From NCBI RefSeq assembly GCF_050320075.1, contig NZ_CP190022.1: a DNA stretch of 64,000 nt; one strand, written 5' to 3'. Below the pieces are notes generated by a model. The model searched no databases and was not told the DNA's origin. It saw only the letters and a list, made by a program, of their open reading frames with translations. Within the stretch, counting starts at the first letter, position 1. Each line of letters opens with the position of its first letter. A program made the position numbers and the translations under genes. Of this stretch, positions 11,101-64,000 are shown piece after piece. This DNA comes from Escherichia coli (GTDB lineage Bacteria > Pseudomonadota > Gammaproteobacteria > Enterobacterales > Enterobacteriaceae).

Positions 11101-12205
11101 TGTGATTATCCTCGGTATCTGTGGCTTTCAGGAACAGGCTGACGGTAGTGGCGTCTTTCAGGATGCCGGACGGCAGGTGCCAGCCGGTATCGGATAACAC
11201 CCATGGGGTACCGCCAAAACCGAACTGGCGGAAAGCCTGGTTATTGACATCGATGGCAGCACGAGCAGCGGTCAGACACTTTTCATCCGGTGCAGCCGGT
11301 GCATCGACGGTGGGTGCCATACCACCGTCTGCGGAATACAGCTGATGCCATCCGGTCGCCCGTTTTTGTGCGTCCGGTTCACACAGCAGTGGCGCAGTCC
11401 GGTTTGTGCTGGCCTCTCCGCCGATTACGGAGACCGGATAAATCACCACGCTGAATTCCCGGGCCAGTTGCTTAAGCGCGGGCTCCAGAAGACGGCAGTT
11501 GATGCATGCGGGGTCAAGGAAGGCGTAGAGTGTGCGTTCATGACCAGTGGAGAGATTAATGGTGAACATACCCCGGTCCGCGTTGCGTTTAAGTACTGTG
11601 GACAGATTACGGCGGGCCTCAGCGGCCTGAACGTGTTGTTCTTCCGTCACTGCCGTCGGGGCGGGGGCAGAAGAAGGTTCCTGCTGTGTGGGAGCCGGGC
11701 GGGCCGGGATGCTGTTAACATGATGTTCCGTATGTGGGCGTGGTGTCTCTGTGTCGGTTACTGGTTCAGCTCTCCATTCCTGAGATGTAGGGTAAGCCAG
11801 CGTGGAAGGGGGCTCTGCCTTCATCCAGTGGTAACCTGCAACTGTCGCCGGCAGAGCAATTCCGGCGATAAAGCCACACATCAGTGTCCGCCAGAAGCCA
11901 TATTTCCGGGAGGGATGTTTTCCTTTTCCGGCATATTCGGCATCCAGGCAGGCATCAATCGCTGAGAGCATTCTGCCGATGTGATGTCCGGGACGTTCTG
12001 CATCAACGGTATCAACAAGCACCGTTTCGGTTATTTCGCGAAAAGGGGAACTGAAGGACAGGTGCATCAGCCTGTTATTACGGTTAATCAGTGCGCCCAG
12101 TTCTGTTACCGGCAGGATGGCAATCACCTCCCGATTACCGTCAGGGTACAGGGCGGTCAGGGACAGGTGTTTATTATTCAGGGTTGCAGTGTAGCGGATG
12201 GTCAT
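11081..12205 (-). CDS. trbB: TrbB, thioredoxin-fold protein with CxxC motif
   Basis: 374 aa; one TM segment; FLDPACINCRLLEP motif; sits between trbC and trbA. Confidence 0.6.
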   Translation of the reverse strand: MTIRYTATLNNKHLSLTALYPDGNREVIAILPVTELGALINRNNRLMHLSFSSPFREITETVLVDTVDAERPGHHIGRMLSAIDACLDAEYAGKGKHPSRKYGFWRTLMCGFIAGIALPATVAGYHWMKAEPPSTLAYPTSQEWRAEPVTDTETPRPHTEHHVNSIPARPAPTQQEPSSAPAPTAVTEEQHVQAAEARRNLSTVLKRNADRGMFTINLSTGHERTLYAFLDPACINCRLLEPALKQLAREFSVVIYPVSVIGGEASTNRTAPLLCEPDAQKRATGWHQLYSADGGMAPTVDAPAAPDEKCLTAARAAIDVNNQAFRQFGFGGTPWVLSDTGWHLPSGILKDATTVSLFLKATDTEDNHNEPASR

Positions 12206-13464
12206 TGTGCTTTTTCCTTGTCTGCGGGATGCCGGGTTTCGGTGGTTTCACCAGTGTCAGTGTCTTCGTCGTTATCATGGCGGCGGGGTATCACGTCATC
12301 CGTGAGTGACCAGCGGGTCCTGATCTGACGTTTACGATCGCGATCTGGCTGAGGTTCGTCCCATATCAGGCCCAGCCCCAGCATGTCCCGTCGAAGCCCT
12401 TCAATGGCCTCTTCCACACAGGGTTCCGGGCAGGGGAGGCCGAGACGGCTGGCTTCATTTTCTGCCCGGGCAACGGCCACCACGCCGGCCCCTTCGATGA
12501 AGCCTTTTGTGGTGTTTGCCCGGTGAAGGGCATAGAAGAGCGTCCGGTCAACGCCCTTGAGCCACAGCCAGTTCGGAGGCGTCAGGCGCAAATCATGTGC
12601 GTAAAGCCAGACCAGACCGCTGCGAACGTAACGGTGCTGCCTGAGCCACTTTTGTGCGCCTTCTGTTTTGATGACCCGGATAAAGGCGTTTCTGGCCAGT
12701 GAATACACCGGCGTGCTGAAACGCCCCTGGTCCCGTTTACTTTTGAGCCTGCAGGAGAGATTGAGGTTGTTCATCAGGGCTACCGCTGCTTTCCGGTCAC
12801 CGAGGAAGAACTGCAGGCCAAAGATGGCAAAGAGCGCTTTTTCATGTGGGGCCATGTCTTTCCAGCTGGTCAGTGGTTGCCCCAGTTGCGCCATGAAGCA
12901 CTGGCGTGTGGACGCAACATCGAGCTGCATGTTGCGGATAAGGTTGTTCTGCTCCACAAAGGCTTCGGGGGTTAGTGCGACACGGCGCTCGGGACGTTTT
13001 TGTCCGTGGAAGAGTCTGTTGTTGTCTCCATCAGCCAGAACGGGGGCGATCGCCGGTGACAGAGCTGAAAAAATATGGGGCAGTGTGTGGATATTCAGTG
13101 GCCTGCGGGTAAAACGGGGCTGGGCCGGATGGTGAAACCACATCCACAGAAAGCCGAATGTCATGGGAAGCAGAATCAACCAGAGGATCCCCACTGTCCG
13201 GGACATAACATCCAGCCACTGGCTGAAAGTGATGGTTGCCGCGTTGTTAGCAGTGATGGCCAGCAGGTTGTAACGGGGGGCGGCAAAGTTGTGAAAGGGC
13301 CCCCAGTCAATCATGCCCCACAGTGTGTGCAGGATCAGGCAGGAGGCGAAGACGATTTCAGGTAAAAAGCGCCAGATGATAATCGCAAAGAGCAGGCATA
13401 TGGCACCGACGATATACCATATAGCCATTGGATCTTCGGCGGCAGACGTCTGTTGGTAAGACAC
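12202..13464 (-). CDS. trbA: TrbA, DotM/IcmP-like inner membrane protein
   Basis: 420 aa; N-terminal TM helices; ATGA overlap with trbB; synteny with R64 trbABC. Confidence 0.65.
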   Translation of the reverse strand: MSYQQTSAAEDPMAIWYIVGAICLLFAIIIWRFLPEIVFASCLILHTLWGMIDWGPFHNFAAPRYNLLAITANNAATITFSQWLDVMSRTVGILWLILLPMTFGFLWMWFHHPAQPRFTRRPLNIHTLPHIFSALSPAIAPVLADGDNNRLFHGQKRPERRVALTPEAFVEQNNLIRNMQLDVASTRQCFMAQLGQPLTSWKDMAPHEKALFAIFGLQFFLGDRKAAVALMNNLNLSCRLKSKRDQGRFSTPVYSLARNAFIRVIKTEGAQKWLRQHRYVRSGLVWLYAHDLRLTPPNWLWLKGVDRTLFYALHRANTTKGFIEGAGVVAVARAENEASRLGLPCPEPCVEEAIEGLRRDMLGLGLIWDEPQPDRDRKRQIRTRWSLTDDVIPRRHDNDEDTDTGETTETRHPADKEKAQ

Positions 13465-13993
13465 GGGGATTCCTCCATAGATGAATGGATAAATTTCGGG
13501 ATTAAGTCGGGTGGCATGAATGCGAATCAGCGCCGGTAATAACCGGACAGGAATGAGTTCAACAGGACATTTTCACAGAGAAGAGCGTGGGAGACAGGTA
13601 CAAAAAAACCGACTGGTGAGGCCGGTTTTTTTGCGATTCCGGGGTGGAGTTGGTGGCTCTGACCGGAGGAAGTCTCTTTTCAACTAACGTTACCAGAATA
13701 GCGTTATATTCACCTGATCGCAATCTGTCAGTTACAATCTATTATTCTGGGAGTAGCGATATCGCCTGAAACAAGTATAATCAGTAAGTTAGCCTTGTCT
13801 GGAGACTTACCTTCGCATCAATCCATCGGGACTATGGATCTGTGCTATTCAAAGACCTGGCCGGACAAACAGGTGGTGCTGTGTCTGGTGCTCTGGCCGG
13901 AGGAAGTCTCTTTTCAGCTAACAATGAGAGAGCTGTTGTGACAGGCAATGTAAGAGTAAGCAGCAGTGATTTCCTCCATTGACGGAGAAACGG

Positions 13994-14089
13994 ATGATTA
14001 ACCTGTTAATCATCGTTCTCAGGGCAGTTGTTGCTGTGGTCAATGCAGTGATAGCAATCCTGGAACTGATCCGGGAGCTTATTGACTGA
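13994..14089 (+). CDS. Small hydrophobic peptide (31 aa), candidate type I toxin-like ORF
   Basis: ggag RBS 6 nt before ATG; MINLLIIVLRAVVAVVNAVIAILELIRELID; followed by hairpin at 14108-14136; below the 60-aa track cutoff. Confidence 0.3.
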   Translation: MINLLIIVLRAVVAVVNAVIAILELIRELID

Positions 14090-14107
14090 TAATCCCGGAA
14101 ACGTACT

Positions 14108-14136
14108 TAAGGGCAGCGGGTAACCGCCCTCTGCCC
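14108..14136 (+). terminator. Hairpin after the small ORF
   Basis: gggcagcgggtaaccgccctctgccc then ttta. Confidence 0.35.
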
Positions 14137-14151
14137 TTTAACAAAATATGC

Positions 14152-14328
14152 TCAGGTTAAAAATCGAAAACCTTCCTGCACTTCCTGCGCCTGTTCCCGT
14201 GAGTCAAACATGAGCCGGCTTTTCCCCGGAACTCCCCAGGAAATATATTCTACATCCACCCACCATTTTCCGTATTCTTCATACGGTCCGGATATCACTT
14301 TAGTGACAAATGCATCAACCAGGTTCAT
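14152..14328 (-). CDS. Small ORF (58 aa) downstream of nuc
   Basis: Hand translation: MNLVDAFVTKVISGPYEEYGKWWVDVEYISWGVPGKSRLMFDSREQAQEVQEGFRFLT; aaaggtg RBS-like sequence before ATG. Confidence 0.2.
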   Translation of the reverse strand: MNLVDAFVTKVISGPYEEYGKWWVDVEYISWGVPGKSRLMFDSREQAQEVQEGFRFLT

Positions 14329-14478
14329 TTTTACACCTTTCTGTTATTCTGCTTATTACGGCCAGCAAACAGCAAATATTAAAAATAACGCGGCGGTAAA
14401 AATGGCAATTTTTTCCCATACTGTATTTTTTCCATTTATTTGCTTTGAAATGTTTTTTTGCTTCATATCAGTAAATGA

Positions 14479-14946
14479 TTATTTTTTATTCTGTTTCCTC
14501 CAGGCCCATGGTGGCACCGGATTTTCATCTGCCCATAATCCCCGTTTAAGGGCACGGGCATCGCGCTGGAGAGCCGGGAGAGTATAGTCCTTGTTGTAGT
14601 CCGGGTATACCCAGGCCGCTCCCTTCCTGATTTGCTCACGATTCGCTTCAGTGCCGTCAGCGGTATAGACTCTGCCGAGAATACGGTTATATCTGTCGGT
14701 CTGTAAGTATTGTACGGTTACAGGCTTACCGGCCACCAGGTCTTTTAACTGAGAGGCAGACCAGCGTCCAAAGGGCTGTTTCTTTTCCGGTGCATCAATA
14801 TTTGCCAGGCGGACCCTGACAGTTTTTTTATCCTGTAATATTTCCAGTGTATCACCATCAAGAACGCGGATAACGTTTCCCTGAATCTGTGCAGCGCAGA
14901 GGGAACCTGAAAAAATAATAGCGAGAGAGAATATATATTTTATCAT
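14479..14946 (-). CDS. nuc: Secreted thermonuclease (staphylococcal nuclease family)
   Basis: Signal peptide MIKYIFSLAIIFSGSLCAAQ; motifs VLDGDTLE, RLANIDAPE, RYNRILGRVY. Confidence 0.8.
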   Translation of the reverse strand: MIKYIFSLAIIFSGSLCAAQIQGNVIRVLDGDTLEILQDKKTVRVRLANIDAPEKKQPFGRWSASQLKDLVAGKPVTVQYLQTDRYNRILGRVYTADGTEANREQIRKGAAWVYPDYNKDYTLPALQRDARALKRGLWADENPVPPWAWRKQNKK

Positions 14947-16454: not shown

Positions 16455-18011
16455 TTGTACAGGAAAATGACTGGCGTGTCTTGTATTAAAGAAAAATCAA
16501 AATATACTTTTGAGAGAGCAAAACAGTTTTATTTTATGTTGTGGTGTAAAGAGTCACTGATTTATCTGTTGTTTTCTGTGCTTGTTACATGGTGTTGCGG
16601 ATATACAGTGAAAAACACCCTGGGGAATGTGCTTATATTGTTCCTGATGTTGTTGTTGGGGCGGCAGAATGTTATTTCAGCAACGTGTGTCTGTATCTTT
16701 CTTTTGTTAAGTGCATTCTATGCTCCGGTTGGGATGATTTACGGAAAAATAAACAACAGTTTTATTGCGTCTGTAATGCAGACAAATCTAAATGAGGCAG
16801 GTGAATTTATCACAGGCATACCTGTTCTTTATTTTATTGTTTCACTGATTATTGCTGCTTTTACATTCTGGTTCTGGCGTAAGCGTGATAAAAGCCACCA
16901 GGGATTTATCTTTCTGTTGTTCTTTATCGTATTGTCAGTAAATGCATGGCCAAAACGTATGGTTACGAATGTAATGACAGGGATAGCTGAAACCAGAGAA
17001 GAAATGATGCGATATGAATCGCTGAAACACAATCAGAAAGATTCATGGGATATTGTGAATGTGGAGAAGAAATATAAAACCATAATTATCGTAATTGGTG
17101 AAAGTGTCAGACGGGATTATCTTTCTGTTTATGGGTATCCTTTGCCGACAACACCATGGTTGAATTCTGCTCCGGGTATATTTATTAATGGGTATTTCTC
17201 CGCAGCTCCGAATACGATAGGTTCACTCAGCAGAACACTGACTCTTGATTACACTGAAACAGGTAATCCGGGTAATAATATTGTTACGCTTGCCAGAAAA
17301 GCCGGATATGAGACGTGGTGGATATCAAATCAGGGCTCTTTAGGGCGACATGATACGCTGATTTCTGTCATCGCCGCCAATGCGGATAAGAAATATTTTC
17401 TTAAGGAAGGGAGCTCTTCTTCCCGTCGCATTGATGATGAAGATATGCTTCAGTATGTCAGGGAAGCTGTTAATTCGTCTTCTCCAAAAGTGATTTTCAT
17501 TCATATGCTGGGGTCCCATCCTAATCCCTGTGACAGACTTTTTAATGATGCACAGCCGTTCAGGGAATTATTCGGAAATAAAGTATCCTGTTATTTATCA
17601 ACATTGCTTAAGCTGGATCGGTTTCTTCAGGCAATTTATAACATGACGACAGAGCATGGCGATGATTTTGCCATGCTGTATTTTTCTGATCATGGGCAAT
17701 CCGTCACTTCAGACAGCACCCCTGTGCATCATGCGCCAGGTTTGCGTTCGGGATACGATGTACCTCTCATGATGATGGCCAGTGATATTACTGAGCACCA
17801 CCTCAATCATGTGCATATCAGTGCACGTCGTTTTCCCGAGATTTTTCAATGGATCACAGGGATACAAACCAAAAATCTGCCGTTAAGTTTTTCTTTGTTA
17901 CAGAATGATTTCGCTGAAAGTGTTTCTGTATTCAATGGTGAACGTGACGTTCCGGTAATGTCTTTGCCAGAAGAGCCGATACTGACCGGAAATGCTGAAT
18001 CAGAAAAATAA
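16455..18011 (+). CDS. Phosphoethanolamine-transferase-family (sulfatase-fold) inner membrane protein
   Basis: N-terminal TM helices, then IIIVIGESVRRDYLSVYGY, FIHMLGSHPNP and FSDHGQS motifs resembling EptA/LptA-type enzymes; low GC; exact start uncertain. Confidence 0.6.
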   Translation: MYRKMTGVSCIKEKSKYTFERAKQFYFMLWCKESLIYLLFSVLVTWCCGYTVKNTLGNVLILFLMLLLGRQNVISATCVCIFLLLSAFYAPVGMIYGKINNSFIASVMQTNLNEAGEFITGIPVLYFIVSLIIAAFTFWFWRKRDKSHQGFIFLLFFIVLSVNAWPKRMVTNVMTGIAETREEMMRYESLKHNQKDSWDIVNVEKKYKTIIIVIGESVRRDYLSVYGYPLPTTPWLNSAPGIFINGYFSAAPNTIGSLSRTLTLDYTETGNPGNNIVTLARKAGYETWWISNQGSLGRHDTLISVIAANADKKYFLKEGSSSSRRIDDEDMLQYVREAVNSSSPKVIFIHMLGSHPNPCDRLFNDAQPFRELFGNKVSCYLSTLLKLDRFLQAIYNMTTEHGDDFAMLYFSDHGQSVTSDSTPVHHAPGLRSGYDVPLMMMASDITEHHLNHVHISARRFPEIFQWITGIQTKNLPLSFSLLQNDFAESVSVFNGERDVPVMSLPEEPILTGNAESEK

Positions 18012-18466: not shown

Positions 18467-18559
18467 TACATGTCATTAGGTGGAAACCGATTGTGGCAGA
18501 CTGAAAATCGATTAGAATAGCGGCGGGCGCTTGAGGCTGTATGCTGAAAGCGTTTTGTG

Positions 18560-18626
18560 GACGGCATGCAGCAGAAAGCCCCAGGCGATTTTTTTATCAA
18601 TCAACCCAGGGCCCACTGTAATGCCT
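18560..18626 (-). ncRNA. Putative Sok-like antisense RNA of the pnd locus (approximate)
   Basis: Perfect TATAAT on the minus strand (plus-strand coordinates 18633-18638) with upstream TTGCCT; would be antisense to the pndC start region; extent inferred. Confidence 0.25.
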
Positions 18627-18824
18627 CAACAACATTATAGTAGCCCGATGACGGCCGAAAGGCAATGGAGGGGCTGCGATGCCACAACGAACGTTTTTAA
18701 TAATGTTAATCGTCGTCTGTGTGACGATACTGTGTTTTGTCTGGATGGTGAGGGATTCGCTTTGCGGATTTCGTATCGAGCAGGGAAATACAGTGCTTGT
18801 GGCAACGTTAGCCTACGAAGTTAA
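18621..18824 (+). CDS. pndC: PndC (Mok-like frame overlapping pndA)
   Basis: Reading frame overlapping pndA in a different frame, as in hok/mok loci; start chosen at an internal Met. Confidence 0.35.
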   Translation: MPQQHYSSPMTAERQWRGCDATTNVFNNVNRRLCDDTVFCLDGEGFALRISYRAGKYSACGNVSLRS

Positions 18825-18831
18825 ACGTTAA
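18679..18831 (+). CDS. pndA: PndA, Hok-family type I toxin (50 aa)
   Basis: Hand translation MPQRTFLIMLIVVCVTILCFVWMVRDSLCGFRIEQGNTVLVATLAYEVKR; Hok signature SLC...R...G...V.A.LAYE; hairpin ggcggcaggaaatctgccgcc follows. Confidence 0.85.
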   Translation: MPQRTFLIMLIVVCVTILCFVWMVRDSLCGFRIEQGNTVLVATLAYEVKR

Positions 18832-63299: not shown

Positions 63300-63846
63300 G
63301 ATTTACGCACTCTTGTAAGCCTTGTGGACGGTTTCGAGGCGGGCGAAAACCGACAACTCCTGCAAACAGGATTAATGGCTGGAAAATATATTACATAAGG
63401 ATGTATCTGTGGCAAGAGTTAATATAAGTAGTTGAATAGATCGTTATATTTGATAAATCAGCATATCATGCTGATTTGTGTGCAGTGTCTGGAGGATTAG
63501 ATCGTTTAAAAATTTTAGGCGATCTCTTCTACTAAAAATGATGAAAAATACAGCATAAAAGATCGTTTGTGAAATTGTTCATTTTTTGACACAGTTCAAA
63601 AAAACGACGCTTTTTCGGGGAGTTAAAGAGGGCCACTGTAACCCTGAGAAATCATGTCGGCTTTTCAAAGCGGTGGAAAAGGGGTATATTGCGGATCGTT
63701 ATGCAGTGGCTTTTGGGATCGTCAGGATCCGGGAAGTCAGAAAACGGCAGGATGCGCCATAAGGCATTCAGGACGTATGGCAGAAACGACGGCAGTTTGC
63801 CGGTGCCGGAAGGCTGAAAAAAGTTTCAGAAGGCCATAAAGGAAAA

Positions 63847-63897
63847 CCCCCACTATCTTTCGTCGAACTTTGGCGGGATCGTGAAAGATAGTGGGGG
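63847..63897. promoter_or_regulatory. Stem-loop with TTGGCG loop motif: candidate structure I / Inc RNA control element of an I-complex replicon
   Basis: Perfect 15-bp stem cccccactatctttc / gaaagatagtggggg around a 21-nt loop containing ttggcg. Confidence 0.5.
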
Positions 63898-64000
63898 CCT
63901 CACAGAATACGGGATAAGTATATATGAAACCGTGTCAGAGATTCAACCCTTTGCAGTGCATTAACGCACGGCAATTTGTTCCCGCCATAAGCGACAGCTT

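Follow-up and report, generated by a model that had tools for sequence, protein, structure and literature searches.

The locus upstream of trbA on an Escherichia coli IncK2/Z plasmid is very probably a DqlB/AgrB type I toxin–antitoxin module

The window analysed here, a 64,000-nucleotide stretch of Escherichia coli contig NZ_CP190022.1, carries next to trbA a locus that is, with a probability of roughly 93% as judged from sequence comparison, the DqlB/AgrB type I toxin–antitoxin module of an IncK2/Z (I-complex) conjugative plasmid. The gap that harbours it extends from 13465 to 14151, that is, 687 bp from the trbA start codon at 13464 to the next open reading frame (ORF) at 14152, and not the 1 kb of intergenic DNA given in the first-pass annotation. 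The same annotation had suggested a type I toxin-like locus, to be checked for an mRNA with a long UTR and for an antisense sRNA, and this suggestion was supported by a DqlB match for the peptide, an AgrB match for the sRNA and a 5′-UTR of about 206 nt that could be aligned with that of dinQ. The locus is an ordinary copy of an already known module, found on many enterobacterial plasmids: NCBIfam and Rfam both have models for its family, PGAP annotates it, and two papers published in 2025 validated it as a plasmid addiction module. Toxicity of the window DqlB and its neutralization by the sRNA would be expected by analogy with the homologues on pOXA-48 and pOXA-484.

The predicted toxin gene, dqlB, lies on the plus strand at 13994–14089 (ATG at 13994, end of the stop codon at 14089) and was taken from the ORF list; its 31-aa product is MINLLIIVLRAVVAVVNAVIAILELIRELID. 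A GGAG Shine–Dalgarno sequence is located at 13984–13987, 6 bases before the ATG, and the short hydrophobic ORF with a ribosome-binding site was thus correctly described in the first pass. Within residues 1–23 the peptide has a single charged residue (R10), and its C-terminal tail is charged, as would fit a membrane peptide with a single helix. By itself such a 31-codon ORF says little, because 59 ORFs of at least 20 aa are present in 4 kb, and this abundance of short ORFs would also fit a chance reading frame accompanied by repeats that are a leftover duplication or protein-binding sites (iterons or a trbA operator), with no toxin–antitoxin function; the occurrence of the repeat upstream of the transfer gene trbA would agree with this. 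However, the peptide matched the NCBIfam equivalog model NF041473, "DinQ-like type I toxin DqlB", far above the cut-off (65.3 bits against 35) and end to end, with residues 1–31 on profile positions 1–31 of 31. It is this homology that makes the ORF at 13994–14089 real, and the RefSeq annotation agrees with the assignment. The ATG at 13994 was taken as the start codon because the family profile covers exactly the 31-aa form. A TTG start at 13979, which would give 36 aa, was rejected, as the Shine–Dalgarno sequence would then fall within the coding region and the profile represents the 31-aa form.

Conservation was surveyed by megablast against PLSDB with the locus and its flanks (13440–14180, 741 nt) as the query. 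The result showed that 2,346 plasmid records matched and that at least 24 dqlB-annotated ORFs were present among the best 30 of these, so that the refuting condition named in the first pass, an ORF absent from related plasmids, did not hold. One IncK2/Z plasmid, NZ_MG825371.1, was 100% identical across all 741 bases, and the ORF at the same position in that record is annotated in RefSeq as dqlB (WP_001443691.1). Outside the locus, NZ_MG825371.1 is otherwise nearly identical to the window, but an apparent 72-nt length difference was seen inside the trbB–trbA interval (12130–12205 versus L001:4691–6025), across which the feature offsets between the two differ by 72. Comparison loci were fetched from IncI-gamma, IncHI2, IncX3, IncP and a second IncK2/Z plasmid, together with the dinQ–agrAB region of E. 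coli K-12. For the six dqlB alleles, representing six plasmid types, pN/pS was 0.07–0.31 in all pairwise comparisons, and the variable sites at codon positions 1, 2 and 3 numbered 6, 3 and 18, respectively. By this measure the dqlB reading frame is under purifying selection, whereas a chance ORF would not be expected to vary mostly at third codon positions with pN/pS well under 1 across six plasmid types. The module was also found on IncX3, IncHI2 and IncP plasmids without an adjacent trbA, which argues against a trbA operator.

An Rfam scan of 13300–14500 placed the AgrB family (RF02891) on the minus strand at 13687→13600 with 52.8 bits, against a gathering threshold of 40, and with the full-length model (1–84) covered; the match also passed when the whole window was scanned. 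The putative antitoxin gene (13600–13687, minus strand) thus encodes an AgrB-like antisense sRNA and is situated about 300 bp upstream of dqlB on the opposite strand, divergent from it and without overlap. The sRNA is predicted to fold into about 20 unpaired 5′ nucleotides, one internal stem-loop and a terminator, an architecture like that of E. coli AgrB. The intrinsic terminator (13602–13632, minus strand), composed of an A-run, a GC stem and a U-run, was recognized by a terminator scan, by the Rfam match and in the predicted fold. An agrA-like second copy was sought in the window by the Rfam scan and none was found, leaving one sRNA gene.

The sRNA promoter was assigned by alignment with E. 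coli agrA and agrB and plasmid AgrB-like genes, and is predicted at 13695–13723 (minus strand), with the −35 box TTGCGA (13723–13718), a 17-nt spacer, the −10 box TATTCT (13700–13695) and 7 nt to the 5′ end of the sRNA. The pattern TTGC-A/N17/TA---T/N7 was present upstream of agrA, agrB and seven plasmid AgrB-like genes. This candidate was chosen because it is conserved and placed as in E. coli agrB, whereas the stronger-looking CTGACA-N17-TATAAC 8 nt further upstream was rejected, being absent from the homologues. Two further sites from the promoter scan, at 13709–13738 (plus strand) and 13801–13774 (minus strand), were also rejected; they fall outside the blocks shared by the homologues, and the scan gave just as many sites as expected from shuffled sequence.

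The repeat finder detected a 33-nt direct repeat, at 13656–13688 and 13890–13922, with 31 of 33 positions identical; the chance expectation for such a pair in 1 kb is about 3e-11. The two copies noted in the first pass are therefore present, but they are not purely upstream elements of the toxin gene, since one lies in the leader of the toxin mRNA and the other in the divergent sRNA gene. Read on the minus strand, the first copy provides the region with which the sRNA pairs at its 5′ end, according to the repeat finder and duplex prediction, this end being the reverse complement of the copy. The predicted target site in the dqlB leader (13885–13922, plus strand; RNAduplex) holds the second copy and begins 104 nt upstream of the ATG, compared with 107 nt upstream of the start codon in dinQ. 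With its own leader the window sRNA is predicted to form 36 bp with one bulge, at −66.4 kcal/mol. Both mismatches between the copies have A in the first and G in the second on the plus strand, and would therefore form G (mRNA)·U (sRNA) wobbles, so that both mismatch positions are paired. By these pairing predictions, the direct repeats represent the seed of the sRNA and the site that it targets in the mRNA. A different origin of the repeats, as remnants of a duplicated protein gene (…GGSLFS(T/A)N… in the ORFs 13644–13769 and 13842–13982) with the small ORF as an immunity protein, was considered and rejected, because the Rfam AgrB match and the dinQ alignment make both copies RNA elements.

AgrB matches were found by Rfam at the same relative position in four of the five plasmid comparison loci. 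The sRNA of the fifth, the IncP locus (L005), was missed by Rfam, and a direct-repeat search placed a diverged sRNA there at L005:1348 (31/36 matches). The variable part of the pairing region differs among the seven loci and changes together in the sRNA and the leader. In a cross matrix of duplex energies, comprising nine sRNAs and seven targets, cognate or same-class duplexes had energies of about −52 to −68 kcal/mol and other-class duplexes −25 to −44 kcal/mol; the exception was the IncX3 locus (L004), for which the duplex with its own target was weak (−42.9 kcal/mol). With the targets of the IncX3, IncHI2 and IncP loci, the window sRNA gave about −35 to −37 kcal/mol, versus −66 kcal/mol with its own. 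Such joint change of both repeat copies is what RNA–RNA recognition predicts and a shared protein-binding site does not. A chance ORF beside iterons, an operator or a leftover duplication is therefore given almost no credence here: the repeat differs between plasmid groups and yet both copies change together, and one copy lies exactly at the 5′ end of the full-length AgrB covariance-model match.

Within the matrix, the window sRNA and the sRNA of the IncI-gamma plasmid (L002:1613–1650) fell into one pairing class, with cross-duplexes of −55.6 kcal/mol (window sRNA with the IncI-gamma dqlB leader) and −63.2 kcal/mol. These modelled energies imply that window-type and IncI-gamma plasmids may neutralize each other's DqlB. 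The second IncK2/Z plasmid (L006; NZ_CP135650.1) has two AgrB-like sRNA genes, at 1657–1744 and 1962–2049, in the region 1647–2320 that was compared with window 13590–14000. The first of these genes and the next approximately 140 nt are nearly identical to the window sRNA, the dqlB promoter and the first approximately 40 nt of the leader; the homology breaks at about window position 13827, beyond which there is no toxin matching the first sRNA; a second sRNA gene and a dqlB of another pairing class follow and make up a complete module. The first sRNA of this plasmid was predicted to pair poorly with the resident leader (−37.6 against −54.4 kcal/mol) but well with the window leader (−63.5 kcal/mol). 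The sequence comparison suggests that it is an orphan antitoxin left by module replacement, in an arrangement that resembles E. coli agrA/agrB.

An alignment of the seven loci, dinQ included, spanned the sRNA gene, the leader, the toxin gene and the 3′ hairpin. The hexamer TATAAT at 13776–13781 (plus strand) was the sole block upstream of the leader conserved in all seven loci; it aligns with the dinQ −10 box and is the predicted −10 box of dqlB, in a promoter with a poor −35 region. Transcription is predicted to start at G13788, which aligns with the dinQ +1 as numbered in PMC5066626. In the first pass the locus had been given as 13640–14140, an extent that does include this toxin promoter, although the −10 box had gone unrecognized, but that cuts off the 3′ half and the terminator of the sRNA gene (13600–13639). 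By alignment with the dinQ leader, the dqlB 5′-UTR would extend over about 206 nt (13788–13993, plus strand) and contain four switching elements, namely sequence 1 (13804–13815), sequence 2 (13899–13908), sequence 3 (13968–13977) and sequence 4 (GGAG, 13984–13987). Conserved with dinQ were blocks of the leader, the CUCC...GGAG Shine–Dalgarno hairpin, the start-codon hairpin, the LELIR core of the peptide and the 3′ stem-loop. The last of these, the putative terminator of the dqlB mRNA (14109–14138, plus strand; identified by the repeat finder and by conservation), has arms of 12 nt each (14109–14120 and 14127–14138) and is followed by UUUAACA. Compensatory changes keep the stem in all seven loci, dinQ included, and the hairpin that the first pass had seen after the stop codon is confirmed.

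The homology to dinQ/agrB throughout the locus raises the question of whether it might be an SOS-inducible system of the chromosomal DinQ type, that is, a LexA-repressed toxin serving the DNA-damage response instead of plasmid addiction. A CTG-N10-CAG motif at 13857–13872 in the dqlB leader offers a weak possibility of LexA binding, and the equivalent site of the IncI1 plasmid pTF2 has been listed as a candidate SOS box with a heterology index of 11.64, corresponding to moderate affinity (PMC12211044). However, this motif, the only one of its kind in 13690–14000, is located about 70 nt downstream of the predicted transcription start. It is more likely an RNA-structure palindrome, because it lies inside a conserved leader stem at that distance past the start. 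In dinQ the LexA operator overlaps the −10 box. The aligned stretch of the window reads AAGTATAATCAGTAAG, in which the CTG and CAG half-sites are both lost; by alignment, no LexA operator was found at the dqlB promoter, and it is missing from the other plasmid loci too. The peptide scored 20.1 bits with the DinQ equivalog model NF041472, below the cut-off of 30, versus 65.3 bits with the DqlB model. Moreover, DqlB induction was not seen in the pTF2 study (PMC12211044), and the homologues that have been tested act as addiction modules (PMC12365149, PMC12317039). An SOS-response toxin is thus a highly improbable reading of the locus, and the DqlB/AgrB addiction module remains the preferred one. 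Since its promoter, unlike that of dinQ, has no LexA operator, dqlB is probably transcribed constitutively and not SOS-induced.

The leader was folded with ViennaRNA and the minimum free energy (MFE) structures were compared. The full-length leader showed 1:2 plus 3:4 pairing, leaders truncated to start at 13825–13848 showed 2:3 pairing, and 3:4 pairing returned when 13885–13922 was masked to mimic bound sRNA. In the truncated leader, however, GGAG was predicted to be mostly paired, to CUCU at 13891–13894, with a probability of being unpaired of 0.08–0.14, whereas dinQ +44, treated identically, gave about 0.29. The open Shine–Dalgarno state was therefore not clearly reproduced by the model, and less clearly than for dinQ. 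The Shine–Dalgarno hairpin has 4 bp here versus 6 bp in dinQ.

For dinQ it is known that the full-length mRNA is untranslatable, as pairing of elements 1 and 2 lets element 3 sequester the Shine–Dalgarno sequence (Kristiansen et al. 2016, PMC5066626), that removal of the first 43 nt allows element 2 to capture element 3 and frees the Shine–Dalgarno sequence, and that binding of AgrB to element 2 re-closes the Shine–Dalgarno hairpin and leads to RNase III cleavage (PMC5066626). From dinQ/agrB and the homologues validated on other plasmids, a corresponding sequence of steps can be proposed for dqlB. The full-length mRNA, starting at about 13788, would be inert in translation, with element 1 paired to element 2 and element 3 closing the Shine–Dalgarno hairpin. 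Processing at the 5′ end would take off element 1, whereupon element 2 would capture element 3 and the ribosome-binding site would be freed. The sRNA, on binding to element 2 and its surroundings, would close the Shine–Dalgarno hairpin again and create an RNase III substrate. Loss of the plasmid would end the supply of sRNA, and DqlB would then be made and would kill or arrest the cell at the membrane. This last step presupposes an sRNA that is shorter-lived than the toxin mRNA, by analogy with other type I addiction modules. Judging from its homologues, the module would stabilize the plasmid through post-segregational killing.

The dql family was defined in 2016 (PMC5066626), and two plasmid-borne members have been characterized. 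On pOXA-48 (IncL), DqlB is toxic and agrB rescues the cells, agrB is without Tn-seq insertions (PMC12365149, 2025), and a supply of agrB rescued cells after forced plasmid loss (PMC12365149). In the same work dqlB was found on 83.2% of plasmids of the IncB/O/K/Z group (PMC12365149), to which the window plasmid belongs. The locus of pOXA-484 (IncX3) is toxic without agrB and stabilizes a test plasmid (PMC12317039, 2025). The window locus resembles both in belonging to the same NCBIfam equivalog, in its length of 31 aa with the N-terminal MINLLIIVLRA and the central LELIR core, and in having a divergent AgrB-like sRNA with about 33–35 nt complementary to the leader, about 100 nt before the start codon, and a 3′ hairpin. 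It differs from the IncX3 homologue L004, with which the window DqlB allele shares 25 of 31 residues, and its pairing sequence is in another specificity class than those of the IncX3, IncHI2 and IncP loci.

With E. coli dinQ and agrA/agrB the locus shares a homologous leader, in which the four predicted switching elements can be aligned, the Shine–Dalgarno and start-codon hairpins and the terminator, as well as a homologous sRNA with a similar promoter layout and fold. In contrast to the window DqlB, DinQ is a peptide of 27 aa that starts at GTG and differs at the N terminus; the chromosomal locus has a LexA operator at the toxin promoter and two sRNA genes, whereas the window locus lacks the operator and has one sRNA gene. 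The window locus is plasmid-borne, and its expected role is addiction and not the SOS response.

The first pass had likened the peptide to TisB and ZorO. That kinship did not hold, the family being DinQ/AgrB: an NCBIfam scan of the peptide at E ≤ 1 gave the DqlB and DinQ models only and no homology to TisB or ZorO. The likeness to TisB/IstR-1 and ZorO/OrzO is one of design, in that the toxin is small and hydrophobic, its mRNA has a long structured 5′-UTR in need of processing, and a divergent sRNA pairs far upstream of the ribosome-binding site. No OrzO-family sRNA was found by Rfam, which gave only a 31-nt match of the terminator AAAAAAACCGGCCUCACCAGUCGGUUUUUUU of the window sRNA to that of the unrelated antitoxin OrzO-P (30.8 bits versus a gathering threshold of 60). 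The loop CCUCACCAG within this OrzO-P-like terminator is shared by most of the plasmid AgrB-like sRNAs, whereas E. coli agrB lacks it.

The same plasmid carries a second type I toxin–antitoxin locus at 18525–18831 (plus strand), 4.7 kb away (about 4.6 kb in the first pass, which had rightly pointed to a Hok-type pndA nearby). It comprises an Rfam sok match (18525–18681, 123.7 bits) and a 50-aa, pndA-like ORF of the Hok family (18679–18831), whose peptide scored 66 bits, under the NCBIfam HokA cut-off of 89. This Hok/Sok system (pndBCA) is, like dqlB/agrB, a type I addiction module; its peptide family is unrelated. The Hok/Sok antisense RNA overlaps its mRNA and is cis-encoded, whereas the window sRNA comes from a divergent gene of its own, which has a repeat in common with the target.

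Several further features were observed in the neighbourhood. A 58-aa ORF on the minus strand (14152–14328) runs towards dqlB and stops 13 nt short of the dqlB 3′ hairpin; it corresponds to the hypothetical protein WP_001054907.1, had no NCBIfam match and also adjoins dqlB on the IncI-gamma plasmid (L002:1877–2053). A 36-aa ORF, MKQKNISKQINGKNTVWEKIAIFTAALFLIFAVCWP (14356–14466, minus strand), hydrophobic in its C-terminal half, is located just upstream of a thermonuclease-family gene (14479–14946, minus strand); the identical RefSeq record leaves this ORF unannotated, and it had no NCBIfam match. The ORF at 16455–18011 (plus strand) encodes a 518-aa phosphoethanolamine-transferase-like protein. 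As it scored 75–108 bits with the CptA and EptA models, far under their cut-offs, and less than 30 bits with MCR, this protein is, by these profile scores, a divergent member of the phosphoethanolamine-transferase family, distinct from the known mcr genes. The I-complex repZ replication-control region is marked, at the end of the window, by an Rfam match to the PK-repZ pseudoknot (63839–63988, plus strand; 167 bits).

Two ideas arise for the wider biology of these modules. One is that AgrB-like sRNAs come in pairing-specificity classes that plasmids exchange, and that an orphan sRNA may act as an "anti-addiction" gene; we regard this as unlikely. If it is true, the orphan sRNA of L006 could neutralize the DqlB of window-type and IncI-gamma-type plasmids, and L006-type plasmids could displace plasmids of these types without the host being killed. 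The other, the weaker of the two, concerns trbA, which is on the same strand as the sRNA gene, with 137 nt between the end of the sRNA and the start codon of trbA. Transcription past the sRNA terminator would run into the trbABC transfer operon, and transcription of the antitoxin could in this way be coupled to transfer-gene expression. Of the module, the RefSeq record of the matching plasmid shows the dqlB coding sequence only and leaves the sRNA gene, both promoters and the sRNA target site unannotated, and it is here that the present assignments add annotation value. Counting dqlB/agrB and pndBCA, the plasmid would carry no fewer than two type I addiction systems, a point of relevance for strategies of plasmid curing.
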